NCBI GenBank assembly: GCA_963803725.1
Contig: CAWDOH010000017.1
Location: 214,722 to 246,721 of the forward strand
Length of the DNA: 32,000 bases
Direction: 5' to 3'
Source: Bryobacterales bacterium
GTDB lineage: Bacteria; Acidobacteriota; Terriglobia; Bryobacterales; Bryobacteraceae
Positions 9,086 through 30,529 of the stretch are shown piece after piece; the first letter of the stretch is position 1, and every line of letters begins with the position of its first letter. The position numbers and the translations under genes were made by a program. Under the pieces are notes generated by a model. That model did no database searches. It saw nothing but the letters and a program-made list of their open reading frames with translations, and was not told the DNA's origin.

Positions 9086-10582
9086 ATGAGGGATACACGA
9101 AGCCTCGCTATTTCCAGGCTGGCTGTCGCCGGTCTATCCATGTTGCTGCTGGTCGCGGCCGCCCCGGCCGCATTCGGCCAGACACTCACCACCGGCGACG
9201 TAGCAGGTGTTGTAAGAGACACCACCGCCGCCATCGTGCCCGCTGCCACCGTGACGCTCAAGAGCACCGAGACCAACGAGGTCCGAACCGTCGTCACCAA
9301 CTCCGCCGGCGAGTACCGTTTTTCGTTGCTGAAGCCCGGCGATTACGAACTTTCGGCGCAATCCCCTGGCCTTAAATCCAAGATCGCCAAATTCACTGCG
9401 CTGGTCGGCCAGATTTCCGAAATGAACATCACCCTCGACGTCACGGGAACTCAGGAAGTGGTCACCGTCGAGGCACAGTCGGCCCTGCTACAAACTGAAA
9501 ATGCCAACCTGGAAACCGGCTACACCACCACCCAGGTGGCGGACCTGCCCATGCCGGGCGGCGATTTGACCACCCTCGCGATGACCGTCCCCGGCGTGCG
9601 CGTCTCGGTGGTGGGCGGCAGCGGCAACATGAACGCCAACGGCATTCCCGGCTCCTCCGTTTTGTTTACTCTCAACGGCAGCGATGAAATGGACCCGTAT
9701 AACAACCTCAACAACTCCGGCGCCAGCAACAACCTGCTGGGCGCCAACGAGGTTGCCGAAGCGGCCGTGGTCTTGAATGCATATAGCGCGCAATACGGGC
9801 GCATGGCCGGCGGTCAGGTCAATCTGGTGGGCAAATCCGGCACTAACAGTTTCCACGGCAACGCCTTCTATAACTACAACGGCGAGTTTCTGAACGCCAA
9901 CGACTTCTTCAACAACCTCGAAGGCGTGCATCGCGGACGTTCGGTTTCGCAGCAGTTTGGCGCCTCTTTCGGCGGCCCGGTCATCAAGAACAAGCTCTTC
10001 TTCTTTGCGGACTACGAGGCTCTGCGCTACGTGCTTCCGGCGGCCGGCGTCATCTCGGTCCCTTCGCCGGCCCTCCAAAGTTACACCCTGGCCCACGTGC
10101 CGTCTGCCTCGATCCCTCTGTACCAGGATTATTTCTCGCTGATTAATGCCGCCCCCGGCATCAGCCGCGCGATTCCCGTGACCAATGGCTCCGGCCCCTT
10201 GCAGGATGGCAACGGCCATCTCGGCTGCGGCACCGGCACCTTCACAGGCACCCCCACGGGAACCGGCGGAACCTTCGGCGTCAACACCTCCTGCGCCCTG
10301 GCCTTCGGCATCAACGACACCGAACTCAATACCGAAGGGCTCGTGACCAGCCGCGTAGACTACAACATCAACGATAAGCAGAAGCTCTTCTTCCGCTACA
10401 ACTACGACTTCGGATTGCAGGCCACTGGCACCAGCCCCATCTCTCCGACCTTCAACTCGGTGAGCAACCAGCCGCAGGACACCGGCTCCGTCAATTGGAC
10501 CTACGTCATCACGCCCACCCTGGTGAATAACTTCGTGGGGTCGGCGTTCTGGTACAGCGCCATTTTCGGCGTGGCCAATTTC
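9086..10582 (+). pseudogene. TonB-dependent receptor paralog 2, 5' portion (interrupted by an IS element)
   Basis: AGGAGG at 9074-9079 precedes ATG 9086. The gene has a signal peptide (…LLLVAAAPAAFGQ) and a CarboxypepD_reg-like domain, and is collinear with receptor 1 up to …AIFGVANF, where the IS sequence begins. Confidence 0.85.
10575..10582. repeat. 8-bp target-site duplication CCAATTTC (left copy)
   Basis: It is identical to 12214-12221 and immediately flanks the IS terminal inverted repeats. Confidence 0.8.
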
Positions 10583-12213
10583 GAGAATGTTTACCACGCG
10601 GTGAGGCACACGTTGGCGTAGGCGTGGACGGTCGCGTTCGATTGATTTTGAAGTTTTGCGGTTGCGACGGGGCCGAAGCGAGTGGAGGGAGCCGAATGGT
10701 TGTTAGGGCAAGTCAGGGTGATGGCCCGGCGGGAACGATCTCCAGCAAGATCGGACAAGCGGAACGTAATAACTTCACCAACTGACCAAAAGCATCTTTT
10801 CCCTGCTGCCAGCAAGTACGCAAAACGCTGGCCAGAATCTGCTGTGTGCGGGCCCCGTTCTCCGTCCGATTACCACCCCAGGTCTTGCGTGCCATCGCCA
10901 TCAGCCGGATCGCCCGCTCGGCGAAGTTGTTGGTGGCATGCAAGCCAGGACAGCGCAGAAAGGTGAACAAGTGCGGCTGCTCGTGGCATAGGTGTTTGGC
11001 CAACCGTTGGTTGTCTGGGCAAGAAAAGTGCTGATCCAATAAGCGGTCCATCCGGGCTTCCAGCCGCCCGGTGGCCACCGCTAAACCATGGCGAGAAACC
11101 GCGCCCCCTTGGTAGCGATCCCGCAACCGGAGACTCTCCTGCAGCAGCGTTTTGACTGCCATCGGGAATTGGGCGGCCGCTACGGAAGCCACCTGGATCA
11201 TCTCGCGACACCGCCGGATCAGGTGTTCCAGGCAACTCTGATGAAACGCCTGCTCAAAACCATAGAAACAACGCGCTCCGTCATGCACCAGGAAACCGGC
11301 GTAGTCCTCTCCCAGAATCGCCGCCGCTTCCGCATATCCGCGATGCGGTTCAATCACGTAAACGGTGACCTGCTGGCTCAACAAAACCCGCAGATTCTGG
11401 GGACGTGCGCCCACTCTCCAGCCCGTGTCGTCCAGCCACACCACCGGGCTTTGCCGCAGCGCGCTTCGCAGTTGCTGGTAAGTAGGCGCCGCCAGATTCC
11501 CCAATCGCTCCAAAGCCCGGCAGACCCCGCTCCGGCTCCACTTCAACCCATAGCCCAGTTCCAGCACCCGCGCCGTCCGCTCGTGCGACAACCCCAATTC
11601 TTTGTTGAGCACTGCCGCCATCGACAAGGCCTCTGGTCCGACTTGCACTTCCCCAACGCGGAGCGAATCGGAGGTCTGCAACGGATGCCGGCCTTGCGCT
11701 TGCCGTCCGCAGCAGGCACAAGTCCCCACCTCCACATCAAAGCGGCGGACGATGGTCATCCGCACGATGTCTTCTTGGTACTGAGGTTGGGTGTTCTTCA
11801 GGATGATCGGACCTTGACAGTGCTGGCAGCGCGGCGGAAGTGGCACGTGGATTTGCTCATCCACCCGTTTGGGGACGGGTCGCGTAGCTCGCGCTCCGTA
11901 TGCCGCCCCAGGCTTACGTCCTGGCGGCTTGGGGTTACTCTTGGGTTCCCCCTTGGAAAACGGCGCGGCACTTCGTTTGTTGGCACGGAGCGCTTCTTCC
12001 AGTTCCTTTCGCAGGCGCTCGTTCTCCGCCAGCGCGCACTTCAACTGCGTCTCCAGAGACTCGACTCTCCGTTCGAGATCCTTCTCGCGATCTGAGGAGC
12101 CACCGCGGTTGGGCGCTTGCATCCATTTGAAGATGACATAAGCTAAACGATTTGTCCAGCCCCTTACTTCGACATCCCTGTCTTTATTGAGTCACGGGCT
12201 GGTAAACATTGTC
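10583..12213 (-). mobile_element. IS66-family insertion sequence, single-ORF type (1631 bp)
   Basis: Imperfect 25-bp terminal inverted repeats are present: 10583-10607 GAGAATGTTTACCACGCGGTGAGGC against the reverse complement of 12189-12213, GACAATGTTTACCAGCCCGTGACTC (19/25 match). The element is flanked by an 8-bp direct repeat, which is the typical IS66 duplication length. It contains one transposase ORF. Confidence 0.8.
10713..12122 (-). CDS. IS66-family transposase (469 aa)
   Basis: It has an N-terminal coiled coil (LERRVESLETQLKCALAENERLRKELEE), a Cys-rich zinc-finger region (PPRCQHCQGP…GTCACCGR), and DDE-region motifs VVWLDDTGW, FLVHDGARCF, HQSCLEHLIRRC and ATNNFAERAIR. Confidence 0.8.
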   Translation of the reverse strand: MQAPNRGGSSDREKDLERRVESLETQLKCALAENERLRKELEEALRANKRSAAPFSKGEPKSNPKPPGRKPGAAYGARATRPVPKRVDEQIHVPLPPRCQHCQGPIILKNTQPQYQEDIVRMTIVRRFDVEVGTCACCGRQAQGRHPLQTSDSLRVGEVQVGPEALSMAAVLNKELGLSHERTARVLELGYGLKWSRSGVCRALERLGNLAAPTYQQLRSALRQSPVVWLDDTGWRVGARPQNLRVLLSQQVTVYVIEPHRGYAEAAAILGEDYAGFLVHDGARCFYGFEQAFHQSCLEHLIRRCREMIQVASVAAAQFPMAVKTLLQESLRLRDRYQGGAVSRHGLAVATGRLEARMDRLLDQHFSCPDNQRLAKHLCHEQPHLFTFLRCPGLHATNNFAERAIRLMAMARKTWGGNRTENGARTQQILASVLRTCWQQGKDAFGQLVKLLRSACPILLEIVPAGPSP

Positions 12214-14132
12214 CCAATTTCAGCAAAACCACGGCTCTGATGCCGGAAGAAATCGCCGTCGCCGATGGCGGCGCCAACGGCGGCGGATTCGCCACGGTCG
12301 GCGCCTCGTTTCCGGACGGCCGCAATGTCGGCCACGGCCAGGCCATCGACGACCTCTCCTGGACCAAGGGGACGCACACCTTCAAAGCCGGCGCCAGTAT
12401 CCGCTACGACAAAGTCACCTATACCAATATCGCCGGCGGCGCCTTCGTCGGGGCATACACGCTTGACGACCTCGCCGATTTTGCCAACGGCACCTTGAAC
12501 TTCAGCGGAACGGGCTTGGGCAGCAGCTTCGTCCAATCTTTCCCCAAGTGGACCGCGGTCCACTTCCGCCTTCCTTCCGAAGACTTCTACGTGCAGGATG
12601 AATGGGCCGCCACCAGGAGTCTGAAGCTGACCCTCGGCATGCGCTTCGAGATGGACCCCAACCCGAGCTGCACCGATCATTGCTTCGCCACCCTCAGTAC
12701 GCCCTTCAATTCGCCCAGTTATCAGGGCGGCGCCAACATCCCTTATAACCAGACCATCGACACCGGCCTGAACAAGGCGTTCTATAACATCCAGACGGTC
12801 GTTCCGGAACCCCGCATCGGCATCGCGTGGTCGCCGTTCGGCAATAGCAAGACCGTTGTCCGCGGCGGCTTCGGCATCTTCTCCACCGTCTATGCGGCCA
12901 GCCTCGCGGGCACCTTCGCCGCCCAGTCGCCCAACGTGTTCAAGCCCTCGGTCACCTTCGGTACGGTCGGCCTCTCCACCGATGCGAACAGTGCGGTCTA
13001 CTCCGCCATTGCTTCCAACGCAGGCTTCCAGTCGGGCTTTACGGCCGGCGACACCCTCGCCCAGATCAAGGCCGCCCTGGGCAAAATCGCCTTCTCCCTG
13101 CCCAGCTTCAATTCCGCCCCCGAGAACTACTCCGCTCCCAAAGACTACGAGTGGAACATCGAAATCGAGCGCCAGATCACTCCGCACAACGTCCTGGCCC
13201 TGACCTATGTAGGCAACCACGGCTACGACATCCAGGAATCCTACAACCTGGATGCCTACACCGGAGCCAGCGGCGTCAGCCGTTACGGCGGCGGCTATGG
13301 CGGCCTTCCCACGGTCGCTCCCGATCCCCGCTTCCTTAGCGTTGCGCAGTACGAGAACAACGGCATTTCCAACTACGAGGCCGGCACCATCCAGTTCAAG
13401 CACAGTTTCGCCGGCGGACTCACCGGCCAGATCCACTACACCTGGAGCCATGCCCTTGGAACCGTCGGCTGGTACAACCCCTATAGCATCGCCACCGGCT
13501 ATGGCGACCTGAACTTCGACAACCGCAGCCAGATGTCCGCCGACTTCGTCTGGAACCAGCCCCACCGGTTCCAGAGCAGGCCCCTGAATTCGCTCCTGGG
13601 CGGCTGGATGTTGAGTAGCAAACTGTACGTGTACAGCGGCCCGCCCTTCAGCGTGACCGATAGCAAAATCCCCTCCCAGATCAACTCGGCGGGCGGCATC
13701 GGCACCATCCTGTCGGACCTGGTGACCCCCAGCGCCGCCTTCATCGGTTGCGGTGCCGCCGCCATCAGCACGCCGTGCATGCCCAAGACTGACTTCTCCA
13801 CCTATTCCAGCACCTCGGGAGTCGCCGCCCCCATCCAGACCGACTGGGGCAACATCGCCCCCGACAGCTTCCGCGGTCCCGGCTACTTCGATATCGACAC
13901 CCAGCTCGCGCGTACCTTCAAAATCAAAGAGCGGGCTTCCCTGCTCATCGGTTTGAACGCCTACAATCTCCTCAACCATCCCAACTTCAAGACCCCTTCG
14001 GGCAGCATTTCTTCGGGATCGTTCGGCGAGATCACCACCGACGTGGCCCCTCCGACCAGCGCCTACGGCTCCTTCCAGGGCGCCGCGGTTTCCGGGCGCG
14101 TCGTCGTGCTGACCGGCAAATTCGTCTTCTAG
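12214..14132 (+). pseudogene. TonB-dependent receptor paralog 2, 3' portion
   Basis: Deleting the IS and one duplication copy joins GCC AAT TTC | AGC AAA ACC in frame (…GVANFSKTTALMPEE…), matching receptor 1 (…GVANFAATSALMPER…). The protein ends …VLTGKFVF. Confidence 0.85.
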
Positions 14133-14608: not shown

Positions 14609-15580
14609 ATGCCTCTTAAGCCTTTCGCACCAGGATGCGGCGCGGAGAAAAAGATCTTTTTGCTTAAACCGCGCGGTTTTTGCGCCGGGGTGGTTCGCGC
14701 GATCGATGTGGTCAAGATCGCGCTCGATCTCTACGGCCCGCCGGTCTACGTGCGCAAGGAAATCGTCCACAACAAGCATGTGGTGGATGAGTTACGCGAA
14801 GCCGGAGCCGTCTTCGTCGAGGAGCTGGATGAGGTCCCCGCCGGTGCCCGCGCCATCTTCAGCGCCCACGGCGTGGCCCCCTCGGTGCGCCGCGAGGCCC
14901 GCGAGCGCCGCCTGGACGTGATCGACGCCACCTGCCCCCTGGTCACCAAAGTGCATCTGGAAGCCGTGCGTTTCGCGCGCGACGGGTTCAGTATCGTACT
15001 CATCGGCCACAAGGACCACGACGAGGTCATCGGCACCCTCGGCGAAGTACCCGAGCGCAGTTACCTGGTGGAAACCGTCGAGGATGTGGATCGCCTGGAT
15101 TTGCCCGATCCCACGCGCGTCCGCTATCTCACCCAAACCACCTTGAGCCTCGACGAAACCCGCGAGATCGTCAACCGCCTCAAGCAGCGCTTCCCGCTCG
15201 TCCAGGGACCTCCCGCCCAGGATATCTGCTATGCCACCGAGAACCGCCAGATGGCCGTCAAGGCGGTCTCCGAGTTTTGCGACCTGTTGCTGGTAGTAGG
15301 ATCGCAGAACAGTTCCAACTCCAAGCGGCTCGTCGAGGTGGGTGACAATTTCGGAGTCCGTTCGTACCTGGTGAACGACCGTACCGATATCGACACCCTG
15401 TGGCTGGAAGGCGTGCGCAATGTGGCCGTCACCGCAGGCGCTTCGGCGCCGGAACACCTGGTCCAGGAATTGATCGAGTTCCTCAGGGAACGGGGCTTTC
15501 ATAACATGGAGGAACTGGAGTTGGTGGAGGAGGACGTGCGGTTTTCCCTGCCGGGCGAACTCATGATTTCGATCCAATGA
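14609..15580 (+). CDS. ispH: 4-hydroxy-3-methylbut-2-enyl diphosphate reductase (IspH/LytB)
   Basis: The N-terminus …KPRGFCAGVVRAIDVV, together with ATCPLVTKVH and SSNSKRL, carries the three conserved Cys contexts of IspH. The length (323 aa) is typical. Confidence 0.9.
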   Translation: MPLKPFAPGCGAEKKIFLLKPRGFCAGVVRAIDVVKIALDLYGPPVYVRKEIVHNKHVVDELREAGAVFVEELDEVPAGARAIFSAHGVAPSVRREARERRLDVIDATCPLVTKVHLEAVRFARDGFSIVLIGHKDHDEVIGTLGEVPERSYLVETVEDVDRLDLPDPTRVRYLTQTTLSLDETREIVNRLKQRFPLVQGPPAQDICYATENRQMAVKAVSEFCDLLLVVGSQNSSNSKRLVEVGDNFGVRSYLVNDRTDIDTLWLEGVRNVAVTAGASAPEHLVQELIEFLRERGFHNMEELELVEEDVRFSLPGELMISIQ

Positions 15581-17517
15581 GCGCGTCGGTACAAGTCGGA
15601 AGTACACTCGAAGCGGCGGCGCGGCACGCCGCCCGCAGGGCCTCGGCTTTCCTGGCCCAGATGCAGAAGCCTGATGGCCATTGGTGCGCGGAGCTTACCG
15701 CCGACACCACCCTCGAGTCCGACTACATCCTGTTTCAACTGTGGCTTTACCCGCCCGAAAAAGGCCGCTGGAATCCCCAGACGCGCCGCCTCATCGATAA
15801 AGCTGCGCGGTCCATCCTCGACCGCCAGTTGCCCGATGGCGGTTTCAACATCTACGTCGGCGGGCCGTCCGAAGTCAGCGCCTCGGTGAAGGCGTATTTC
15901 TCGTTGAAACTCGCGGGCCTGGATGTGGACGATCCGCGCATGGCGCGCCTGCGGCGGCGCATTCTGGAGTTGGGCGGCATTCAGGCGGCCAATAGCTACG
16001 TAAAAGTCAACCTGAGCCTCTTCGATCTCTACCCGCGGCAGTATTGTCCCAGCATTCCGCCCGAAGTGGTGCTGCTGCCGTTCCATTTTCTGTACCAGAT
16101 GTCTTCGTGGACCCGCGCCATCGTAGTCTCGCTGTCCATTGTCCACTCCTCCAATCCGCGGCGTTCCGCGCCCGCCGGCTTCACCCTGGATGAGATTTGG
16201 CTGCCGGGCGCCAGCCCCGAATTCCAGCGGGACCCCAACTGGGTCACCTGGCATAACCTCTTCTTAGCGGCCGACGGTTTTCTGAAATGGTGGGAGCGCC
16301 ACGGCAGCCAGTCCTTGCGCCGCAAGGCCATTGCCATTGCGCGCGAGTGGATGATCGAGCGCATGCGCCACTCCGATGGATTGGGCGCCATCTACCCGCC
16401 CATGATGTATTCGGTCATGGCGCTCGATTGCCTGGGCTACGCCAAAGACGACCCGCTCCGCCTGGAAGCCCTCCGCCAGTTCAACAAGCTGATGGTGGAC
16501 GATGGCAAACGCTTCTTCATCATGCCCTGCTTTTCGCCGGTGTGGGACACCGCCATCGGCGCCTTTGCTCTCGGCCAGGCCGACCCCGAGCACCCAGCCC
16601 TGCGGGGGGCAGCCGATTGGCTGCTGGCCCGCGAAGTGCGGCGCAAAGCCGATTGGTCGGTGAAGCGGCCGCATACCGAACCCTCCGGCTGGGCCTTCTT
16701 CTATCAGAACGAGCACTATCCCGATGTGGACGATTCGGCCATGGTCATGCTCGCGCTGGCCGATTCGGCCGGATCGAATCCCGCAGCCCAGTTGGCCTGT
16801 CACAAACGCGGTGTGGACTGGCTGCTGGCCATGCAATCCGGCGATGGCGGCTGGGCGGCCTTCGACGCCGATAACAACTGGGAGTTTCTCAACGGCGTGC
16901 CCTTCGCCGATCACAATGCCATGCTCGACCCCACCTGCGCGGATATCACCGGCCGCGTGCTGGAGGCGCTCGCGGCGCACGGCGTGGAACGCAGCCATCC
17001 GGGGATGCGACGCGGCGTGGACTGGCTGGTGCGCCACCAGGAGGCCGACGGAAGCTGGTACGGCCGCTGGGGCGTGGCGTACATTTACGGCACCTGTTTT
17101 GCACTGCGCGGCCTGGCCGCCTCCGGCGAAAGCGATCGCGAGGCCCACGTGCTCCGCGCCGGCGAGTGGCTGCGCTCCATCCAGAATGCCGATGGCGGCT
17201 GGGGCGAAAGCTGCGCCAGCTACGAGAACCGCGTCTTCACCCCCGCTCCCAGCACCCCTTCGCAAACCGCCTGGGCTCTCATGGGACTGATCGCCGGCGG
17301 AGATGCCGCCAGCCTCAGCGTGCAGCACGGCATCGAATATTTATTGGAAACGCAGCGCGAAGACGGAAGCTGGGCCGAAACCCTCGCCACCGGCACCGGG
17401 TTCCCGCGCGTGTTCTACCTGAACTATCATCTCTATAAAGACTATTTCCCCTTGCTGGCGCTGGCTGCTTTCGTCAGGACCCGCTCAAGCTCGCATGGTT
17501 CCAATTCCCGTGGTTAA
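15577..17517 (+). CDS. shc: squalene-hopene cyclase
   Basis: The ATGA overlaps the ispH stop. The catalytic DxDD motif is present (YPDVDDSAMV). Multiple QW repeats are present (MQKPDGHWCAE, QSGDGGWAAF, HQEADGSWYGRWG, IQNADGGWGE, TQREDGSWAE). Length is 646 aa. Confidence 0.92.
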   Translation: MSASVQVGSTLEAAARHAARRASAFLAQMQKPDGHWCAELTADTTLESDYILFQLWLYPPEKGRWNPQTRRLIDKAARSILDRQLPDGGFNIYVGGPSEVSASVKAYFSLKLAGLDVDDPRMARLRRRILELGGIQAANSYVKVNLSLFDLYPRQYCPSIPPEVVLLPFHFLYQMSSWTRAIVVSLSIVHSSNPRRSAPAGFTLDEIWLPGASPEFQRDPNWVTWHNLFLAADGFLKWWERHGSQSLRRKAIAIAREWMIERMRHSDGLGAIYPPMMYSVMALDCLGYAKDDPLRLEALRQFNKLMVDDGKRFFIMPCFSPVWDTAIGAFALGQADPEHPALRGAADWLLAREVRRKADWSVKRPHTEPSGWAFFYQNEHYPDVDDSAMVMLALADSAGSNPAAQLACHKRGVDWLLAMQSGDGGWAAFDADNNWEFLNGVPFADHNAMLDPTCADITGRVLEALAAHGVERSHPGMRRGVDWLVRHQEADGSWYGRWGVAYIYGTCFALRGLAASGESDREAHVLRAGEWLRSIQNADGGWGESCASYENRVFTPAPSTPSQTAWALMGLIAGGDAASLSVQHGIEYLLETQREDGSWAETLATGTGFPRVFYLNYHLYKDYFPLLALAAFVRTRSSSHGSNSRG

Positions 17518-17535
17518 GGCTATGAAAGTTACGCT

Positions 17536-18642
17536 ATGAAATTTCCCATCTCGATGACCGCCGGCCTGGCCCGATACATTTTCAAAAACAAGATGCATCC
17601 GCGTCCGGAGTGGCAGAAGACCGCGGCGGTGGCCCCGGATGCCGCCAATCCGTTCCGCATCCTGGCCTCCAAGACCGGCGCCAAGAGCCAGCCGCATCCC
17701 ATGATCCACAAGCGCTTTCCGATCGTCCTGATGCTCGAGCCGCTGCACGCCTGCAACCTCACGTGTACCGGCTGCGGCCGCATTCGCGAGTACGAAAGCA
17801 CCATCACCGAGCGCGTCCCGCTGGAAGAGTGCCTCTCGGTAGTGGATGAGTGCGGCACGCCCATCGTCTCCATCTGCGGCGGCGAGCCCATGATGTACCC
17901 GCAGATCGGCGAGCTGGTGGCCGGCATCCTGGACCGCAACCGCCACATCCTGCTGTGCACCAACGGCATGTTCATCAAGAAGCGCCTCCACGAGTTCACC
18001 CCCGACCCGCGCTTTTACTTCAACGTCCACCTGGACGGCATGGAGAAGAATCACGACATCGCCGTGGAGCGCGAAGGCGTCTTCCGCGAAGCCATCGAAG
18101 GCATCCGCGTGGCTAAGGCGGCCGGCTTCAAAGTCTGCACCAACACCACGGTCTATAAAGAGACCGACATGCGCGAAATTGAGGAGCTGTTCGAGTATCT
18201 CAAGCAGTTCAACCTGGATGGCCACCAGATCGCGCCGGCCTATGGATATTCCGCCGTCAACGACCGCGAAATTTTCATGACCCGCGATGACGTGCACGAA
18301 AAATTCCGCGAGTTCGACCGCATTGCCAAAAAGTACAATGTCCGCCAGACCCCCGTGTACATGGAATTCCTGCGCGGCGAGCGCGAGCTGCCCTGCACCG
18401 CCTGGGGCAATCCCACTTACAACGTGAAGGGCTGGAAGGGTCCGTGTTACCTGATCACCGACGGCCATTACAAGACCTTCGAAGACCTGATGACCCAGAC
18501 CCCCTGGGAAAGCTATGGCCCCGGCAACGACCCGCGCTGCGAGCACTGCATGATGCACTGCGGCTTCGAACCCTCCGCCGCCCTCGGCATCAACGCCAAA
18601 TTCAGCGACAATTTCAAGCTCTTGAGCTGGATGCTGCGCTAA
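17536..18642 (+). CDS. hpnH: adenosyl-hopene transferase, radical SAM enzyme HpnH
   Basis: The radical-SAM motif LEPLHACNLTCTGCGRIREY (CxxxCxxC) and SICGGEP are present. The conserved C-terminus includes CTAWGNPTYNVKGWKGPCYLI and RCEHCMMHCGFEPSA. Confidence 0.88.
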   Translation: MKFPISMTAGLARYIFKNKMHPRPEWQKTAAVAPDAANPFRILASKTGAKSQPHPMIHKRFPIVLMLEPLHACNLTCTGCGRIREYESTITERVPLEECLSVVDECGTPIVSICGGEPMMYPQIGELVAGILDRNRHILLCTNGMFIKKRLHEFTPDPRFYFNVHLDGMEKNHDIAVEREGVFREAIEGIRVAKAAGFKVCTNTTVYKETDMREIEELFEYLKQFNLDGHQIAPAYGYSAVNDREIFMTRDDVHEKFREFDRIAKKYNVRQTPVYMEFLRGERELPCTAWGNPTYNVKGWKGPCYLITDGHYKTFEDLMTQTPWESYGPGNDPRCEHCMMHCGFEPSAALGINAKFSDNFKLLSWMLR

Positions 18643-18942: not shown

Positions 18943-19433
18943 TGACCGATTATGAGCGGTTCGGCCGGGATGCCCGCTCCCGAGGTGTCCTGATCGACAC
19001 GAACCTGCTGGTGCTATTGATCGTCGGTTTAGTCAATCGCGATCGTATCCCGCAATTTAAGCGGACCAGCCACTTCAGCGCCAAGGATTGGAACGTGCTC
19101 GCTGCAATGCTAGACCATATCCCACGCAGGTACTGCGTGGCGCACATCCTCGCGGAAGTGAGCACCCTGACGGACATGCCAGGCCCGGAACGTTTCCTCG
19201 CAAGAGGAGTATTACACCGGACTATTTCCGGTTTAGAGGAAGTGCCCATCGCCAGCCTGGATGCCTGCAAGTCTCCCTATTACCGCCGTCTTGGCCTGAC
19301 CGATGCAGCCATCGTCCTCATCGCCCAACAGCGCGGCTGTTCGGTCGTCACCAACGATTCCGCCCTGTACCTGGCTCTCATGGAGGAGGGCGCTTCCGCC
19401 ATCAACTTCGATGACCTCCGAAATCTCCTCTGA
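18942..19433 (+). CDS. PIN-domain protein (putative ribonuclease toxin)
   Basis: Four acidic positions sit in PIN-typical contexts: VLIDTNLL, ILAEVSTL, GLTDAAIV and VVTNDSAL. Length is 163 aa. Confidence 0.6.
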   Translation: MTDYERFGRDARSRGVLIDTNLLVLLIVGLVNRDRIPQFKRTSHFSAKDWNVLAAMLDHIPRRYCVAHILAEVSTLTDMPGPERFLARGVLHRTISGLEEVPIASLDACKSPYYRRLGLTDAAIVLIAQQRGCSVVTNDSALYLALMEEGASAINFDDLRNLL

Positions 19434-20324
19434 CCATCTCCGGCTCTCCCGCCTTTCTCCGCGCTTCCTCCGCCCCCTCGGCGTCTCTGCGGTGAATCCC
19501 ACTCCCCCCACTCCTCCGCCTCTCCGCATCTCCCCGCCGAACCCGCCCGCGCCCTCGCGCCTCAAAGCCCCCTCTTGCCTTTCTCCGCGTTTCCTCCGCT
19601 CCCTCCGCACCTCTCCGGAAACTCCGCTTCCTCTACGATCTTTCCTGACCTTGGGTCTTCTCCGCGATTCCTCCGCGTCTCCGCGTCTCCGCGTCGAATG
19701 GGACCCGCCGCTGGCCTGTCGGGAATTTCCTCGCCGCAAGAACACCGACAGGTCCGCGGTGAATCCCACTCCCCCCACTCCTCCGCCTCTCCGCATCTCC
19801 GCGCCGAACCCGCCCGCGCCCTCGCGCCTCAAAGCCCCCTCTTGCCTTTCTCCGCGTTTCCTCCGCTCCCTCCGCACCTCTCCGGAAACTCCGCTTCCTC
19901 TACGATCTTTCCTCACCTCGGGTCTTCTCCGCGATTCCTCCGCGTCTCCGTGTCTCCGCGTCGAATGGGCCCGGCCGCTGGCCTGTCGGGAATTTCCTCG
20001 CCGCAAGAACACCGACAGGTCCGCGGTGAATCCCACTCCCCCCACTCCTCCGCCTCTCCGCATCTCCGCGCCGAACCCGCCCACGCCCTCGCGCCTCAAA
20101 GCCCCCTCTTGCCTTTCTCCGCGTTTCCTCCGCCCCCTCCGCACCTCTCCGGAAACTCCGCTTCCTCTACGATCTTTCCTCACCTTGGGTCTTCTCCGCG
20201 ATTCCTCCGCGTCTCCGTGTCTCCGCGTCGAATGGGCCCGGCCGCTGGCCTGTCGGGAGTTGCCTCGCCCCGAGAACATCGACATAAATCGATGCCTGTG
20301 CTCCGCGGTGAATCCGAGGCCCTC
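19434..20324 (+). repeat. tandem array of three ~267-bp C/T-rich repeats plus partial copies
   Basis: The phase marker GCGGTGAAT occurs at 19489, 19756, 20023 and 20305, giving periods of 267, 267 and 282 bp. Units 1 and 2 are nearly identical, and unit 3 diverges at its 3' end. Each unit contains the hairpin CCTGTCGG…CCGACAGG (for example 19715-19722 with 19745-19752). The array fills the whole gap between the PIN stop and the hpnA ATG. Confidence 0.9.
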
Positions 20325-21308
20325 ATGAAACCCGCCCTGGTCACCGGCGCCTCCGGCTTCCTCGGCTGGCACGTCGCCCGCGTGCTCCTCGAACGCGGCC
20401 ACTCCGTGCGCGCCCTCGTCCGCCCCGGCAGCCGCGTCACCGATCTCGATGTAGAAACCGTCACCGGCGACCTCCGCGACCGCGCCTCCCTCGACCGCGC
20501 CGTCCAGGGCTGCGAACTGCTCTTCCACGTCGCCGCCGATTACCGCCTGTGGGCCCGCCATCCCGAGGAACTCTACCGCTCCAACGTAGACGGCACCCGT
20601 AACCTGTTCGAAGCCGCCCGCGCCGCCGGCATCCAGCGCGCCGTCTACACCAGCACCGTCGGATGCATCGGCATTCCCCCCGGCGGCATCGGCGACGAAG
20701 ACACCCCCGTGTCCCTCGCAGACATGGCCGGCCCCTACAAACGCTCCAAGTTCCAGGCCGAACAAGTGGCCCTGCAATTTGCCCGCGACGGCTTCCCCGT
20801 GGTCATCGTCAACCCCACCGCGCCCATCGGCGACCACGACGTGAAGCCCACCCCCACCGGCAAAATCGTGGCCGACTTCCTGGCCGGCGCCATGCCCGCA
20901 TTCATCGACACCGGCCTCAACGTAGTGGATGCCCGCGACACCGCCGAAGGCCACTGGCTCGCCTGCCAGCACGGCCGCGTGGGCCAGCGCTACATCCTCG
21001 GATCGGAAAACCTCACCCTGGCGGAAATCCTGCGCAAGCTCGCCCGCATCACCGGCCGTAAAGCCCCCACCGTGCGCCTGCCCTACGCGGTTGCCTGGTG
21101 CGCCGGAGCCTGCTCCACCGCTTGGGCGCAAATCACCGGCATCGCCCCGCGCGTCCCCCTGGACGCCGTCCGCATGGCGCGCAAGAAAATGTGGGTGAGT
21201 CACGAAAAAGCCGCCCGCGATCTCGGCTTCCATCCCGGCCCTGCCGATGTCGCCCTCGCCCGCGCCGTCGCCTGGTTCGAGCGCCGCGCCCAGGCGCCCG
21301 CCGCGTAG
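20325..21308 (+). CDS. hpnA: hopanoid-associated NAD-dependent sugar epimerase/dehydratase HpnA
   Basis: ATG at 20325 gives MKPALVTGASGFLGWHVARVLLERGHSVRALVR, the GxxGxxG Rossmann motif. The catalytic YxxxK context is present (PYKRSKFQAE). The gene sits in hopanoid-cluster context. The part of ORF 19575..21308 upstream of this ATG is translated repeat sequence. Confidence 0.75.
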   Translation: MKPALVTGASGFLGWHVARVLLERGHSVRALVRPGSRVTDLDVETVTGDLRDRASLDRAVQGCELLFHVAADYRLWARHPEELYRSNVDGTRNLFEAARAAGIQRAVYTSTVGCIGIPPGGIGDEDTPVSLADMAGPYKRSKFQAEQVALQFARDGFPVVIVNPTAPIGDHDVKPTPTGKIVADFLAGAMPAFIDTGLNVVDARDTAEGHWLACQHGRVGQRYILGSENLTLAEILRKLARITGRKAPTVRLPYAVAWCAGACSTAWAQITGIAPRVPLDAVRMARKKMWVSHEKAARDLGFHPGPADVALARAVAWFERRAQAPAA

Positions 21309-21320
21309 GACTCGAAGCCC

Positions 21321-22013
21321 ATGCGCATCCTCCTGGTGGCCGCCGATCCCCGCGAGTTCTCAGGCATGCTTTCGCTCGCCTCCGACCACGGCCCCGTCCC
21401 CCTGGGCATCGATTGGGGCCGCTGCGCCCGCCTCGGCGACCACGATGCCCTGCTCATCGCCAACGGCGCCGGACGCGCCCGTGCCGGCGCCGCCGTCGAC
21501 GCATCCGACGAGTTCGGCCCCGATGCCGTGGTCAGCACCGGCTTCTGCGGCGCCCTCGACGAACGCCTGGATGTCGCCGATGTGGTGCTGGCAACCTCCA
21601 TTGACGATGGGCAGCGGCGCTTTTCCGCACTGCCCGCCGAAGGACCGGGTGAAACCTTTACCGGTCCCATCCGATCTATTGAACGAGTAGTATTGAGCGC
21701 AGAGGAGAAGTGTTTACTGCGGAATTCGGGTGCCTGCGCCGTGGAAATGGAGGCCGCCGGAGTGGCCGCCCGCGCGCTGGAACTGGGGTTGCCCTTTTAT
21801 TGTGTGCGTGCGGTAACTGATTTAGCGGAGGAATCGCTGGCAAATGATTTTAATCGGGCCCTCCGTCCGGACGGTCATTTCGATACAATGAGTATTCTAT
21901 TGGGGGCCTTGCGTGATCCGGCCGTCCGCCTGCCGGAGTTGCTTCGCCTACGGAAGCGATCGATCCAGGCGGCACGCGCACTGGGGGAGTTTTTTGCCAA
22001 TTGCCGATTGTGA
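21321..22013 (+). CDS. hpnG: hopanoid-associated nucleosidase/phosphorylase HpnG (PNP_UDP family)
   Basis: The 230-aa product has the PNP/MTA-nucleosidase-like pattern (VVSTGFCGAL, AVEMEAAGVA, VRAVTDLA). It lies immediately after hpnA in a hopanoid locus. Confidence 0.7.
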   Translation: MRILLVAADPREFSGMLSLASDHGPVPLGIDWGRCARLGDHDALLIANGAGRARAGAAVDASDEFGPDAVVSTGFCGALDERLDVADVVLATSIDDGQRRFSALPAEGPGETFTGPIRSIERVVLSAEEKCLLRNSGACAVEMEAAGVAARALELGLPFYCVRAVTDLAEESLANDFNRALRPDGHFDTMSILLGALRDPAVRLPELLRLRKRSIQAARALGEFFANCRL

Positions 22014-22035
22014 CCTGAGCGATATTCCCGAAACC

Positions 22036-23091
22036 ATGCACGCGGCGGTCTATCGCGGCCAGAGTGTCGTCAGCGTCGAAGAGATTCCTACGCCCGCCAT
22101 CGGCCCCGGCGAAATCCTGATTCGCGTGGAGGCTTGCGGAATTTGCCACACCGATCTGAAGAAAATCGAACATAACTTATTGGCCCCTCCGCGCGTTTAT
22201 GGCCATGAAACTGCCGGCGTGGTCGCGGCCGCCGGCCCCGGCGTCGAAAAGTTCCAGCCCGGCGATCGCGTCGTCGCCTTTCACCACATCCCCTGCCTCG
22301 AATGCTTCTACTGCCGCCGTAAGATCTACGCCCAGTGCCCGGTCTACAAACGCGTGGGAATCACCGCGGGCTTCGAGCCCGCTGGCGGCGGCTTTGCCCA
22401 GTACGTGCGCGTCATGGACTGGATTGTGGCTCGCGGCGTGGAGCGCATCCCCGCCGGCATCTCCTTCGAGCGCGCCACTTTGGTGGAACCCCTGAACACC
22501 TGCCTCAAAGCCGTGGTGCAGTGCGATCCGCAGCCCGAAGATACCGTGCTCGTCATGGGCCAGGGACCTATCGGCCTCATGTTCACCATGCTCGTCGCCC
22601 GCACCGGCGCGCGCGTGGCCGCAACCGATACCATCGCCGAGCGGCGGACCCTTTCCTCCCGCTGCGGCGCCGCCTTCACCTGGGATCCGCGCACTGCCGA
22701 CATCCCCGCCGAATTGCGCCGTCTCACCGGCGGGCGCGGCGCCGACCTGGTGATTGTAGCCGTTTCCACACCCGGCATCGTGCAGCAGGCCATTGCCGGC
22801 TCCCGCCCCGGCGCCCGCATCCTGCTGTTTGCCCAAACCGCCGCCACCGAGCGGATCGAGGCCTCCGGCGCCGAGATTTGCGCCGGTGAACGAACCCTGT
22901 TTGGATGTTATAGTGCTTCGGTGGACTTGCAAAAGGAGTCCGCAAATCTGGTTTTTAACGGCGAACTGCCCGTGGAGGAGCTGATTTCCCATTGTTTGCC
23001 GTTGGTTAAAATCCGTTCAGGAATGGATTTGGCATTGCATCCGGGACCTAAATCGTTGAAAATAATCGTTCAGCCACAGAGGTGGTCATAG
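22036..23091 (+). CDS. zinc-dependent medium-chain dehydrogenase/reductase (alcohol/polyol dehydrogenase family), copy 1
   Basis: Catalytic Zn motifs are ACGICHTDL and YGHETAGVV. The structural Zn cluster is CLECFYCRRKIYAQC. The nucleotide-binding motif is VMGQGPIGL. Confidence 0.8.
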   Translation: MHAAVYRGQSVVSVEEIPTPAIGPGEILIRVEACGICHTDLKKIEHNLLAPPRVYGHETAGVVAAAGPGVEKFQPGDRVVAFHHIPCLECFYCRRKIYAQCPVYKRVGITAGFEPAGGGFAQYVRVMDWIVARGVERIPAGISFERATLVEPLNTCLKAVVQCDPQPEDTVLVMGQGPIGLMFTMLVARTGARVAATDTIAERRTLSSRCGAAFTWDPRTADIPAELRRLTGGRGADLVIVAVSTPGIVQQAIAGSRPGARILLFAQTAATERIEASGAEICAGERTLFGCYSASVDLQKESANLVFNGELPVEELISHCLPLVKIRSGMDLALHPGPKSLKIIVQPQRWS

Positions 23092-23102
23092 TGAAGAGCC
23101 AC

Positions 23103-24131
23103 ATGATGGCTGCTGTGCTTTACGGCAAGGAACACTTGCAGGTTGAGCCGGTGGCCATTCCCACAATTCAAAGCGGAGACATTCTCGTACGAGTGAAAGT
23201 GGCGCTGACCTGCGGAACCGATGTCAAGGTTTTTCGCCGTGGTTATCATGCTCGAATGATCGTCCCGCCCGCTGTTTTCGGGCACGAACTGGCCGGCGAC
23301 GTGGTCGCCGTAGGCGAGGATGTCACCAGGTTCTTGGTCGGGCAACGCGTCGTGGCGGCCAATTCGGCGCCCTGCGAGCAATGCTATTTTTGCCGTCGCG
23401 GTTTGCAGAATCTCTGCGACGACCTGCTGTTTAACAACGGCGCCTACGCCGAGTATATTCGCATCCCCGCCCGCATCGTGGAACGGAACACCTACCTGCT
23501 TCCCGCGCACGTGGATTATCAGGATGCCGCCCTGGTCGAGCCTTTGGCGTGCGTCGTGCGCGGCCTCGAGGAAACCAATCCCCAGCCCGGCGATACCATG
23601 GCCATCATCGGCCTCGGCCCCATCGGCCTCATGTTCGTGAAGCTGGCCAAGCTCTACGGCTGCCGCGTCATCGCCGTGGGCCGCCGCAAAACCCAGTTGG
23701 ATCGCGCCGCCCTCCTGGGCGCCGACGAGCTGGTCGTCGGCAGCGATGAAGCCAACCCCGTCCGCACCATCCGCGACCTCACCCACGGACTCGGCGTGGA
23801 TGTGGCCATCGAAGCCGTCGGCCAGCCGCTTACCTGGGAGTGGGCCGTCGGCATGGTCCGCCGCGGCGGCACCGTCAATTTCTTCGGCGGCTGCCCCAAC
23901 CACAGCACCGTCAATCTCGATACCGCCCTGCTGCACTACTCCGAAATCACCTGCAAAGCCAGCTTCCATCACACCCCGGCGTACATCCGGAAGGCGCTGG
24001 ATCTGATTTATCAGGGGCACATCGCGGCTTCGTTCTTCGTCAACAATCAGGAGCCTCTGGCCAACCTGCTGGAAGTGATGCGCCACCTGATGAGCCACAA
24101 CGGCCATTTGAAAACGGCCATCGTTCCGTAA
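23103..24131 (+). CDS. zinc-dependent medium-chain dehydrogenase/reductase, copy 2
   Basis: Motifs are LTCGTDVKV, FGHELAGDVV, CEQCYFCRRGLQNLC and IIGLGPIGL. The start is uncertain: ATG at 23103/23106, or GTG at 23082/23091 overlapping the upstream stop. The stop TAA directly abuts the hpnC ATG. Confidence 0.78.
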   Translation: MMAAVLYGKEHLQVEPVAIPTIQSGDILVRVKVALTCGTDVKVFRRGYHARMIVPPAVFGHELAGDVVAVGEDVTRFLVGQRVVAANSAPCEQCYFCRRGLQNLCDDLLFNNGAYAEYIRIPARIVERNTYLLPAHVDYQDAALVEPLACVVRGLEETNPQPGDTMAIIGLGPIGLMFVKLAKLYGCRVIAVGRRKTQLDRAALLGADELVVGSDEANPVRTIRDLTHGLGVDVAIEAVGQPLTWEWAVGMVRRGGTVNFFGGCPNHSTVNLDTALLHYSEITCKASFHHTPAYIRKALDLIYQGHIAASFFVNNQEPLANLLEVMRHLMSHNGHLKTAIVP

Positions 24132-25072
24132 ATGACGGGTCCGGGCGAATCCGCGTTTCTCCCGCCGGCCGAATTCGTGAGGTCGCCAGCGGCTCTTCAG
24201 AAGACTTACACCGCCGAAGAAGCGCGCCGCTACACCCGCTGGCTGGCCACCCACCACTACGAAAATTTCCACGTCGTCAGCTTCCTGCTCCCGCAGCGCC
24301 TCCATCAGGATTTCTACAACGTCTACGCCTATTGCCGCTGGGCCGACGACCTCGGCGATGAAATCGGCGATCGCGCCGAAAGCCTCCGCCTGCTCGCCTG
24401 GTGGCGCACCCAACTTGACGCCATGTACGCCGGCCGCGCCGCTCACCCCGTCTTTGTCGCCCTCGCCGGCACCGCGCGCCAATTCGCCATCCCCCGCGAG
24501 CCGTTCGCTGACCTGATCTCCGCCTTCATCCAGGATCAGACGGTCGGCCGCTACCAGCGATTGGCCCGACCTGTTCGGCTACTGCCGCAACTCCGCCAAC
24601 CCCGTCGGACGTCTGGTGCTCTACCTCTGCGGCTACTCCGATGCCGCCCGCCAGCGCCTTTCCGACGCCACCTGCACCGCCCTGCAACTGGCCAATTTCT
24701 GGCAGGATGTCACCGTCGACTGGCGCAAGGATCGCGTCTACATGCCCCTCGACGTCCTGGAGCGCCACGGCTCCAGCGTCGACGATTTGTCCGCTCCGCC
24801 GCTTCACTCCAGCCTTCCGCGATGCCATGCGCGAGATGCGTTGGCAAGGCCCGCGAACTTTTCCTCGAAGGCCTGCCGCTGGTAGGCATGGTCGACCGAC
24901 GCCTGGCGCTTGGACCTCGATCTGTTCAGCCGCGGCGGCCTGCGCGTGCTCGAAAAAATCGAGGCGGCAGGGTTACGACGTGCTCTCCGCGCGGCCGGCC
25001 ATTTCCAAGGCCGAGCGCGTGGGCCTGCTGCTGGCCTCGCTCGCCCGCACGGCGTTTGCACGGTCGGCATGA
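24132..25072 (+). pseudogene. hpnC: HpnC-type squalene synthase-family gene, disrupted by five +1 frameshifts as given
   Basis: HpnC-like segments appear in successive frames:
- frame of 24132: …HYENFHVVSFLLP…YAYCRWADDLGDE…FIQDQTVGRYQ
- then DWPDLFGYCRNSANPVGRLVLYLCGY…LQLANFWQDV…
- then RRFTPAFRDAMREM
- then VGKARELFLEGLPLVGMVDRRLAL
- then DLDLFSRGGLRVLEKIEAAG
- then YDVLSARPAISKAERVGLLL…
The frame switches lie near 24558, 24796, 24839, 24912 and 24973. Confidence 0.75.
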
Positions 25073-25945
25073 TGCACGAGATCGATCAATCCTACTCGTA
25101 CTGCCGAAGCGCGTGGCGCGCACGCGGCGCCAAAAACTTCTACTACTCCTTCCTCCTGCTCTCCGCCCAGCAGCGCAAGGCCATGTGCGCCATCTACGCC
25201 TTCATGCGCTATGCGACGACCTGAGCGATGAACCCGGCGCCATCGCGCGCCGCCATCGAAGCTGGCGCAATCAACTGGAAGCCGCCCTCGACGGCCACTT
25301 CAGCGGCCACCCCGTCTGGCCCGCCTTCCACCACACCGTGCGCCGCTTCGGCATTCCCCACCAGTACTTCCGCGAAATGATCGATGGCGTGGTCTCCGAC
25401 CTGGAGCCGCGCCGCTTCGAAACCTTCGACGAGCTATACCGCTACTGCTACCAGGTCGCCTCAGTCGTCGGCCTCACCACCATCCACATCTTCGGATTCG
25501 ATACCCCCAGCGCTCTGCCGCTGGCCGAAAAATGCGGCGTGGCCTTCCAGCTCACCAACATCCTGCGCGACATCCGCGAAGACGCCGGCCGCGGCCGCAT
25601 CTACCTGCCCGCCGAAGACCTGCGCCGCTTCGGTGTCACCGAAGACGACCTCCGCGCCGGCCGCCGCACCGGCGGTTTCGTCGAGACTGATGCGCTTCGA
25701 AGCCGCCCGCGCGCGCGCCTATTACGACGAGTCCGCGCCCCTGCTGGATCTCATCCACCCCCGCAGCCGCCCCTCGCTGCTCGGCGCTGATTTCGATCTA
25801 CTCCCGCCTGCTCGAGCGCATCGAGCAAGCCAACTACGACGTCTTCACCCGCCGCGTGCGCCTCTCCGCATTCGAAAAATCCTGGATCCTCGTCCGCGCC
25901 GCGGTAGGGCAAGCTTTAGCAGGGCCGCCGGCGGGGCCGGTTTGA
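25069..25945 (+). pseudogene. hpnD: HpnD-type presqualene diphosphate synthase-family gene, disrupted by three frameshifts as given
   Basis: The ATGA overlaps the reconstructed hpnC stop. The segments are MMHEIDQSYSYCRS…NFYYSFLLLSAQQRKAMCAIYAFMRY | CDDLSDEPG…YRYCYQVASVVGL…FQLTNILRDIREDAGRGRIYLP… | LMRFEAARARAYYDES… | LISIYSRLLERIEQANYDVFTRRVRLS…. The switches lie near 25212 (-1), 25686 (+1) and 25786 (+1). Confidence 0.75.
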
Positions 25946-26281
25946 ACGAAAGTGTGACCCGCCGCCGGCCCCGCGCCAACCAACTCGGCTATAAACCTGA
26001 GCCACAAACGGCCGCGTGAGGAGCCGCTAACTGATTGAGCGGCAATGGGGTCACAGATGAACTTGCCCGGCTTCGATTTCCTCACAGCTTTCGAGGAACT
26101 CCCCCCGGAAGTCGCTGATAACAATCGATTGGCGGGAAATCAAGAAAGAGCCAATTTGCACTGCATACAACGCGGAGTCCCTCTCCCATTAGGTCCCCGC
26201 GCCCAGCGGGCGCTTCTGAGGGACCGTCGTCAATTTCGTGGCTGCGACACGGCACCAGGCCCTCCGCCCGTCGGCGGTCGC

Positions 26282-26380
26282 CCCCAATAAAAACAACCAG
26301 CCGTCCACGAACATCTGCACCAGGTCGATCAGGTAATCGTGACGGCGGATGTGCGCCAGTTCGTGCAGCAGCAGGGCTTC
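26282..26380 (-). pseudogene. remnant of an M56 (BlaR1-like) peptidase gene
   Basis: Only the zinc-site block EALLLHELAHIRRHDYLIDLVQMFVDGWLF is recognisable within ORF 26189..26533. The transmembrane N-terminus and the downstream domain are absent. Confidence 0.45.
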
Positions 26381-26507
26381 ACCGCGGCAAACGGACTGGG
26401 GCCCCCATTCGCCATTCGCCTCGCACTCGCATCGCTTAAGATTGGCTAACACAAAAGGCTCCTGTTCCGTCTTATCGGCTGGTGTAGACCCGTAGAGGAG
26501 GGGAGAG

Positions 26508-26972
26508 ATGAAGCCAATTGAGCGTTCTGCCACAGCAATTCTCGCGATTACGGTGTGTCTTGGAATCGCTCACGCCAGCGGACCAATAGCCGTATACGCG
26601 CTCGTGGACAAGGTGGTATTCGAACCCGGCGCGGACAAGCCGGAACGTATCCGAATCTCGGGTGTCTTCATTACCGCCGTGGACGGATCGTCGGACGTGT
26701 ATTCGCCGCCCCAGCGCGGATACCTCTACTTCACGTTGCCGAAAGGCAATGAGCAACTCGCGCGGAGGGAGTGGGCCGACCTGAAGTCCATCGCCGGTTC
26801 GCGCCAGGTAGTGGGACTCGGCTCCATTTGGTTCGGCAAGGCGCAGACGCGGGTCAGGAAATCGGATGAGGAGGCCAAGTCTCCAGACGACTATCCGATG
26901 GGAAATGGCTTGGTCAAAGTAAACCCGGACCAGCCCAGGGCCAAGGCGCTGCTGGATTACAAAGATCGCTGA
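26508..26972 (+). CDS. secreted hypothetical protein (154 aa)
   Basis: GAGGAGGGGAG lies directly upstream of the ATG. The signal peptide is MKPIERSATAILAITVCLGIAHA|SG. No family was recognised. Confidence 0.6.
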   Translation: MKPIERSATAILAITVCLGIAHASGPIAVYALVDKVVFEPGADKPERIRISGVFITAVDGSSDVYSPPQRGYLYFTLPKGNEQLARREWADLKSIAGSRQVVGLGSIWFGKAQTRVRKSDEEAKSPDDYPMGNGLVKVNPDQPRAKALLDYKDR

Positions 26973-30193: not shown

Positions 30194-30529
30194 CCTAAAT
30201 CCGGCAGTTAGCCAGCCGCCCCGCCTCGTAGGGCCATTGGGGCCACCAATTTCCAACTGCGGCGCAGATCACCTTCCGGGTCACAAGCGGTTTATCCCTA
30301 AATCCGGCAGTTAGCCTGCCGCCCCGCCTCGTAGGGCTATTGGCGCCACCAATTCCCAACTGCGGCGCAGATCACCTTCCGGGTGACAAGCGGTTTATCT
30401 GCAACTGGTTGCAGCGCACGGCCACTGCCCGTTCCGCGGGGCTGCAACCGCCGGATTTAGGTTTATCTGCAACTGGTTGCAGCGCATGGCCGCTGCCCGC
30501 TCCGCGGGGCCGCAACCGCCGGATTTAGG
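30194..30529. mobile_element. MITE-like 165-bp element carrying a second copy of itself (outer copy 30194-30296 + 30468-30529)
   Basis: The terminal inverted repeats are CCTAAATCCGGCAGTTAGC… and …GCAACCGCCGGATTTAGG. The outer halves are about 95% identical to the inner copy. GTCAT is duplicated on the outer flanks (30189-30193 and 30530-34). Confidence 0.7.
30297..30461. mobile_element. inner MITE copy (165 bp) inserted at the centre of the outer copy
   Basis: It is a complete element with both terminal repeats. It is flanked by direct TTTATC (30291-30296 and 30462-30467), whereas an intact element has a single TTTATC at this position (30394-30399). Confidence 0.7.

Follow-up and report, generated by a model that had tools for sequence, protein, structure and literature searches.

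Twelve private indels in hpnC and hpnD of a Bryobacterales bacterium: a probable local consensus artefact

The window analyzed here is a 32,000-nucleotide stretch of contig CAWDOH010000017.1 (positions 214,722 to 246,721) from the Bryobacterales assembly GCA_963803725.1, and it carries a hopanoid gene cluster in which hpnC and hpnD are interrupted by frameshifts. In the three-step route of hopanoid producers, squalene is made by HpnC, HpnD and HpnE (Pan et al., 2015, as summarized in PMC5462960). When set against 79 relatives, hpnC and hpnD of the window contain 12 indel events (13 bases) between 24556 and 25782 that none of the relatives has, comprising nine +1, one +2 and two -1 events. These indels are private to the window, confined to the two genes, dominated by insertions, located on sites that are polymorphic among relatives, and unaccompanied by decay through substitutions. 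Judging from the sequence comparisons, they probably represent a local consensus artefact, with hpnC and hpnD being intact and functional in the organism, and the frameshifts are most likely not a biological feature.

The twelve indels and the frame-corrected genes

The two affected genes overlap, the start of hpnD overlapping the stop of hpnC (TGATG):

24132-25072, + strand: hpnC, hydroxysqualene/squalene synthase HpnC, with five +1 insertions in the recorded sequence
25072-25945, + strand: hpnD, presqualene diphosphate synthase HpnD, with seven indel events (+2, +1, -1, +1, -1, +1, +1)

Indels were placed by three-frame translation and by MAFFT and blastn comparison with five relatives, with the closest relative found (L081, an ENA metagenome contig with 93.5% nucleotide identity over 22483-25908), and then with the 79 relatives jointly. 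All lie on the + strand:

Indel 1, about 24556 (24554-24559), + strand, +1 in hpnC: window CAGCGAT against CAG-GAT (L081) or C-GCGAT (L001, L023 and others)
Indel 2, about 24795 (24789-24797), + strand, +1 in hpnC: window GCTCCGCC against GC-GCGCC or CT-CCGCC
Indel 3, about 24837 (24835-24839), + strand, +1 in hpnC: window GAGATGCGT against GAG-TGCGT or GAGAT-CGT
Indel 4, about 24910 (24907-24913), + strand, +1 in hpnC: window CTTGGAC against CT-GGAC or CTC-GAC
Indel 5, about 24965 (24962-24970), + strand, +1 in hpnC: window GAGGCGGCAGGG against GAGGC-G... or GAACG-GCAGGG
Indel 6, about 25106 (25103-25109), + strand, +2 in hpnD: window TGCCGAAGCGC against TGC-CGG-CGC or T(C/G)(C/T)-AAG-CGC
Indel 7, about 25128 (25125-25129), + strand, +1 in hpnD: window CGGCGCC against CGG-GCC or CGC-GCC
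Indel 8, about 25212 (25210-25214), + strand, -1 in hpnD: a column that holds C (43 relatives) or T (34) is lost
Indel 9, about 25243 (25241-25246), + strand, +1 in hpnD: window GCCATCG against GCCA-CG or GCCT-CG
Indel 10, about 25260 (25258-25262), + strand, -1 in hpnD: a column that holds C (60 relatives), G (11) or A (7) is lost
Indel 11, about 25686 (25682-25688), + strand, +1 in hpnD: window GAGACTGATG against GAGA-TGATG or ..C-TGATG
Indel 12, about 25781 (25778-25783), + strand, +1 in hpnD: window CTGCTCGG against CTC-TCGG or CTG-TGGG

An initial annotation of this DNA had recognized eight frame changes, and all eight are present within a few bases of where they were placed; the count of eight was too low, since two locally compensated pairs in hpnD (four events) had been overlooked. 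In the first pair, indel 7 returns the reading frame 22 nt past indel 6, at which the window holds parts of both codon alleles, and the +2 and +1 together turn YCKRVARTRAKN into YCRSAWRARGAKN. In the second pair, the -1 of indel 10 compensates the +1 of indel 9 after about 17 nt, and GATRAAIE becomes GAIARRHR. The two pairs scramble 8 and 6 residues, respectively. The comparison with orthologous loci that the same annotation had called for thus establishes the indels as private to the window among 79 relatives.

The concentration of these events is pronounced. The 1,814 bp of hpnC and hpnD contain 12 events. By comparison, 0 private indels break a frame in the flanking coding sequence of ispH, shc, hpnH, hpnA, hpnG and alcohol dehydrogenase (ADH) genes, of which 7,831 bp (14609-18641 and 20334-24131) can be compared with the same relatives. 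Under a uniform rate, the probability that all 12 indels fall in hpnC and hpnD is 2e-9.

With the indels taken out, both genes are complete: the correct frames run without a stop, and larger deletions are absent. The corrected HpnC (311 aa) matches TIGR03464 with 355.2 bits (cutoff 250.45; profile positions 2-266 of 267) and the Pfam family PF00494 (SQS_PSY) with 231.7 bits (2-262 of 263); the open reading frame (ORF) as recorded reaches 246.6 bits to TIGR03464 in two partial stretches, which is under the cutoff. The hpnC orthologue of L081 is likewise an intact 311-aa gene. For the corrected HpnD (290 aa), TIGR03465 is the best-scoring family, at 274.7 bits with a cutoff of 278.6 (profile positions 2-266 of 267), and PF00494 is matched with 278.5 bits (3-262 of 263). 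Its closest database relative, P0001 (278 aa), is 91% identical, and P0024, which is 85% identical, bears the NCBI name HpnD. The Asp-rich motifs and stop-free correct frames that had been described from the raw sequence can be read in the corrected proteins, which contain ADDLGD and QDVTVD (HpnC) and CDDLSD and RDIRED (HpnD).

At its 3' end, hpnD extends 13 codons beyond the stop of L081, L023 and L001 (25900-25945; GGG CAA... in place of GGC TGA), which is either natural C-terminal variation or one more error.

It is barely conceivable that the sequence is both correct and functional as written, with the 552-aa ORF at 24132-25790 being a true HpnCD fusion or with translation relying on programmed ribosomal frameshifting. 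One ORF of 552 aa does cover most of both genes, true HpnCD fusions of about 640 aa exist, and fused HpnCD proteins are known in subdivision-2 Acidobacteria (PMC5462960). However, the matches of the ORF to HpnC and HpnD are limited to residues 39-144 and 362-518 (best stretches at HpnC profile positions 2-108 and HpnD profile positions 35-193), and the remainder is HpnC and HpnD sequence read out of frame. The ORF was called chimeric from the start, and this description holds, with two partial SQS_PSY/HpnC/HpnD matches; it stays open only because out-of-frame DNA of 62% GC seldom meets stops. The fusion was rejected, given that the ORF does not hold two complete SQS_PSY domains in a single frame. 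Programmed frameshifting was rejected as well, since at least eight net frame changes would be required, these have no slippery-site pattern in common, and none of them is conserved in any of the 79 relatives.

Substitutions, selection and the indel spectrum

In codon alignments with the indels removed, the ratio of nonsynonymous to synonymous substitution rates (dN/dS) on the window branch is 0.08 for hpnC and 0.09 for hpnD, compared with 0.04-0.19 for the intact neighbours and 0.09-0.16 for the L001 and L023 orthologues. Changes in hpnC and hpnD since the split from L081, polarized with five outgroups, amount to 10 nonsynonymous and 24 synonymous in the window lineage and to 23 nonsynonymous and 35 synonymous in the intact L081 lineage. 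Both genes are under strong purifying selection like their intact neighbours, and the relaxation expected of neutral decay is not seen.

Many frameshifts within a short span could be taken to mark hpnC and hpnD as old pseudogenes after long neutral decay, a reading to which we give almost no credence. The corrected genes are free of stops, match their profiles over the full length and keep both pairs of Asp-rich motifs, and at a dN/dS of about 0.08-0.09 they have accumulated fewer amino-acid changes than the intact sister lineage. The old-pseudogene reading is refuted by this substitution pattern, in agreement with the argument against long-term decay made in the initial annotation.

A genuine but very recent inactivation, in which a burst of small, mostly +1 indels is tolerated because squalene is supplied by a one-step synthase or by another hpnCD copy, is unlikely. 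Relaxed selection is absent even relative to the intact L081 lineage (10/24 against 23/35 nonsynonymous to synonymous changes), and the corrected genes have neither the larger deletions nor the in-frame stops of a decaying gene. Bacteria usually accumulate about one indel per 10 substitutions, and the decay of their pseudogenes is deletion-biased. Assuming that all window-derived nonsynonymous changes post-date inactivation, there can have been at most about 14-26 neutral substitutions, for which 1.4-2.6 indels are expected at about 0.1 per substitution, and the probability of 12 or more is 3e-8 to 2e-5. A recent inactivation would need an indel:substitution ratio of about 1 or more, with P <= 2e-5 at the usual ratio. 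Moreover, insertions outnumber deletions 10 to 2 (P = 0.019 at equal rates, P = 2e-4 with a 70% deletion bias) and mostly lie outside homopolymer runs. The indel spectrum of hpnC and hpnD is not that of bacterial neutral decay, and ordinary pseudogene decay, whether old or moderately recent, is rejected because of the excess of indels per substitution and the 10:2 dominance of insertions. The compensated pairs, closing after 22 and about 17 nt, also have no selective rationale in a gene that is broken five or more times.

If the frameshifts were real, they would represent a highly localized, very recent burst of mainly +1 insertions that killed hpnC and hpnD with no accompanying substitutions, which we regard as distinctly improbable. 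For such a burst, a stretch of about 1.2 kb would have to have undergone an unusual mutational process specific to indels, and selection on shc, hpnH, hpnA and hpnG would have to be maintained by a second, unlinked source of squalene. The other hopanoid pathway genes are under strong purifying selection on the window branch, and squalene is therefore still needed, which counts in favour of intact hpnC and hpnD.

Both alleles at polymorphic sites and errors in related assemblies

The majority of the insertions are not extensions of homopolymers. Most occur at sites that are polymorphic among relatives, and the window holds both alleles side by side, such that CAG/CGC appears as CAGC, GAG-TGC/GAG-ATC as GAGATGC, AAG/CGG as CGAAG and CGG/CGC as CGGC; similarly, A/T appears as AT, A/C as AC and G/C as GC. 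For a quantitative test, each possible base was dropped from each insertion in turn, and the insertion was counted when relatives have at least two different k-mers thus obtained at the corresponding position. In the window, 8-10 of 10 insertions are counted, compared with 26-54% for simulated random insertions into the corrected sequence (P = 2e-4 to 2e-3); in this test, polymorphism among relatives is a proxy for heterogeneity in the reads. The same enrichment is found in the relative L084, used as a positive control (15/16, 12/16 and 10/16), and the trend in L074 is weaker (5-7 of 9; P = 0.05-0.10). Both window deletions likewise hit polymorphic columns (C 43/T 34 and C 60/G 11/A 7). The presence of both alleles at polymorphic sites resembles known error-laden long-read assemblies and argues against a recent inactivation.

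We infer a technical origin for the indels. At assembly or polishing, the consensus of a stretch of about 1.2 kb was probably called from a poor or heterogeneous pile-up of long, indel-prone reads, in which more than one closely related haplotype, or a paralogous copy, was probably represented. At positions with two alleles the consensus would then have kept both bases (+1 or +2) or neither (-1). Second copies of hpnC/hpnD, partial or complete, lie a few kb downstream of the first in the relatives L017 (3462-4892) and L021 (11729-11986), and copies of this kind are a candidate source of paralogous reads. The window resolves an intact IS66 copy within a gene and a tandem array of 3 x 267 bp with 97% identity; a long-read or finished assembly is therefore plausible. 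The initial annotation had left two readings side by side, and between them a local problem of sequence quality is favoured over a very recent inactivation.

Several observations weigh against a consensus artefact and on the side of a genuine loss. Confinement of the indels to 1.2 kb in two genes, with 7.8 kb of clean flanking coding sequence, is also what selection produces around a real pseudogene, where purifying selection persists outside the dead gene, and a technical cause must assume that consensus quality fell locally. Along 22483-25908, substitution divergence to L081 does not change abruptly where the indel cluster begins and ends, and it thus gives no independent indication that the tract is heterogeneous or recombinant. 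Real gene loss occurs in this genome, as an outer-membrane gene split by IS66 and another with a +1 frameshift near 5840 lie in the same window, disrupted truly or apparently. Redundancy is biologically plausible as well, given the second hpnC/hpnD copies, partial or complete, in L017 and L021, and in some Acidobacteria a synthase of the FdfT type replaces HpnCDE (PMC5462960).

To the consensus artefact, in turn, the assemblies of relatives offer close parallels. Indels in hpnC and hpnD whose length is not a multiple of three are absent from 73 of the 79 relatives, and in L050, L069 and L072 they are confined to the hpnC/hpnD junction. Beyond these junction events, private 1-bp insertions in conserved hopanoid genes occur in this panel only in Microflora Danica metagenome-assembled genomes (MAGs), which are Nanopore-only Flye assemblies with one round of Medaka (PMC12313526). 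L074, L040, L031, L020, L038, L056 and L037 are the Microflora Danica MAGs that carry private +1 insertions in hpnCD, ispH, shc, hpnH, hpnA or the ADH genes, and the short-read MAGs of the panel have no such indels except the junction events of L050, L069 and L072. L074 (MFD01689.bin.1.102) has nine private +1 insertions in hpnC, aligned to window positions 24212-25009, and zero in its other hopanoid genes. This is an independent cluster of frameshifts at hpnC, two positions of which are common to L040.

The contig L084 (ENA ERZ25039593 contig_95253, a Flye-style name) carries about 1 surplus base in every 100 bp throughout the cluster, with more than 90% of its indels being insertions, and its ispH, shc and hpnA calls are fragmented. 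It was reached through P0123, a chimeric product of 790 aa that joins mixed-frame translations of ADH, HpnC and HpnD. A further product, P0127 (509 aa, from a 4.8-Mb contig), looks similar, and both are in public protein collections. Nanopore consensus sequences are known to keep frameshifting indels, mainly below about 40x coverage (PMC9262707).

None of the indels occurs in other public sequences searched, which again speaks against a recent inactivation, and no independent copy from the same species, with or without the indels, was found in them. A pattern scan of metagenomes spanning indels 9 and 10, allowing for the indel or the corrected form, gave no match, and a scan over indel 7 on the same terms returned only the known L081-like JGI contig, which is without the insertion. 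Look-ups of the exact products of the 552-aa ORF, hpnH, ADH, shc and ispH gave no match, for which differing start codons or a source that is not indexed may be the reason. A protein search with the chimeric 552-aa ORF retrieved no identical or near-identical chimera; its hits were limited to true HpnCD fusions (about 40% identity) and further frameshifted products.

The locus, its surroundings and comparison with known systems

The window has a GC content of 61.9%, and its nearest relatives are Acidobacteriota of the Bryobacteraceae/Solibacter type. As the initial annotation stated, the neighbouring hopanoid genes are intact:

14609-15580: ispH, intact, Pfam match
15577-17517: shc, intact, full-length NCBIfam match
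17536-18642: hpnH, intact, full-length NCBIfam match
between hpnH and the 267-bp tandem array: PIN-like ORF
about 20334-21308: hpnA, intact, full-length NCBIfam match
21321-22013: hpnG, intact, full-length NCBIfam match
after hpnG, up to 24131: two Zn-dependent alcohol dehydrogenases
23082-24131, + strand: the Zn-dependent ADH 'ug2', adjoining hpnC on its 5' side, intact, Pfam ADH_N and ADH_zinc_N

The last of these has zero indels relative to L081, L001 and L023 and a dN/dS of 0.019 relative to L081. Sinninghe Damsté et al. (2017, PMC5462960) described an association of the 'ug2' Zn-ADH gene with hpnC across Acidobacteria that they examined.

The lack of hpnE in the window had been counted toward a lost pathway, an argument that carries no weight. 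Since three relatives checked (L081, L003 and L023) also have no hpnE beside hpnD, its missing from this position is uninformative on pathway loss; the genes that follow hpnD in them are unrelated (MarR/hydrolase, MacB-like, RND efflux). What had been described as an M56 remnant downstream of hpnD comes down to a short minus-strand ORF (26189-26533) with the motif HELAHIRRHD and a weak 23-residue match of the HExxH region to Peptidase_M56 (BlaR1; E = 0.012), and this ORF is probably a gene remnant.

Elsewhere the window is not clean. A single +1 shift at about 5835-5850 divides an outer-membrane gene with CarboxypepD_reg and OMP_b-brl_4 domains, resembling TonB-dependent receptors (4010-7412), into two ORFs, 4010-5866 and 5874-7412; at the junction, ...FAAHIRM is continued by SLGAYAQDEWKV... 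in the next frame. Either a further consensus error or a true pseudogene may lie behind this shift. Another outer-membrane barrel gene (8954-14132) is interrupted by a minus-strand transposase gene of the IS66 family (10713-12122), which separates an N-terminal part (8954-10621, profile positions 3-228) from a C-terminal part (12240-14132, profile positions 267-830). Two overlapping ORFs at 1304-1792 and 1632-2441 lie in different frames and match no family; they might belong to a single gene that a +1 shift near 1750 has broken. A window-wide frame plot of GC content at third codon positions, drawn for further frameshifts, is too noisy beyond highly expressed or conserved genes.

Repeats are present at two places. 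A 267-bp unit occurs three times in tandem at 19486-20286 (94-100% identity), between the PIN-like ORF and hpnA, within a stretch (19424-20318) that is absent from the syntenic locus of L023; the long ORF 19575-21308 crosses the array by chance only. At 30194-30529, in apparently non-coding DNA downstream of a sulfatase gene, there are two short tandem duplications side by side (103 bp x 2 and 68 bp x 2).

If the indels are an artefact, this genome would be wrongly scored as being without the HpnC/HpnD route, or as having a 'fused' 552-aa synthase, and chimeric products of error-laden long-read contigs are already in public protein collections (P0123 and P0127). Indel-only damage with unchanged dN/dS, combined with insertion bias and the presence of both alleles at polymorphic sites, offers a test that can separate consensus errors from real pseudogenes and that needs no reads. 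If the indels are real, they point to unusual, localized frameshift mutagenesis and to a redundant source of squalene in Bryobacteraceae.

With regard to known systems, the corrected window genes are orthologous to hpnC and hpnD of the HpnC-HpnD-HpnE pathway and are placed after the Zn-ADH 'ug2', but hpnE does not adjoin hpnD, as is true of the window and of the three Bryobacteraceae relatives checked. The order ispH-shc-hpnH-hpnA-hpnG-ADH-ADH-hpnC-hpnD is common to the window, L023 and L021, and partly to L001. Like the fused HpnCD proteins of subdivision-2 Acidobacteria and some Actinobacteria and Alphaproteobacteria, the window has one long ORF with HpnC-like and HpnD-like segments; unlike these fusions, which have about 640 aa and two complete domains in frame, its ORF of 552 aa consists of partial domains and long out-of-frame stretches. 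With bacterial frameshift pseudogenes the locus shares several frame-breaking indels in recognizable genes, intact neighbours, and disrupted genes and an insertion sequence nearby; it differs from them in a dN/dS that is not raised, in having no stops or larger deletions, in its insertion bias and in an indel:substitution ratio far above the usual one. From long-read consensus errors the window differs in that its indels occupy about 1.2 kb rather than the whole contig, with only L074 clustering comparably, and in that most of them lie outside homopolymers, the classical failure mode of Nanopore sequencing. Shared with such errors are single-base indels that fragment or fuse gene calls while the underlying sequence is well conserved, the dominance of insertions, as in L084 and the Microflora Danica MAGs of the same family, and the enrichment at sites polymorphic among relatives; coverage-dependent residual indel errors of long-read consensus sequences are themselves well documented (PMC9262707; PMC12313526).

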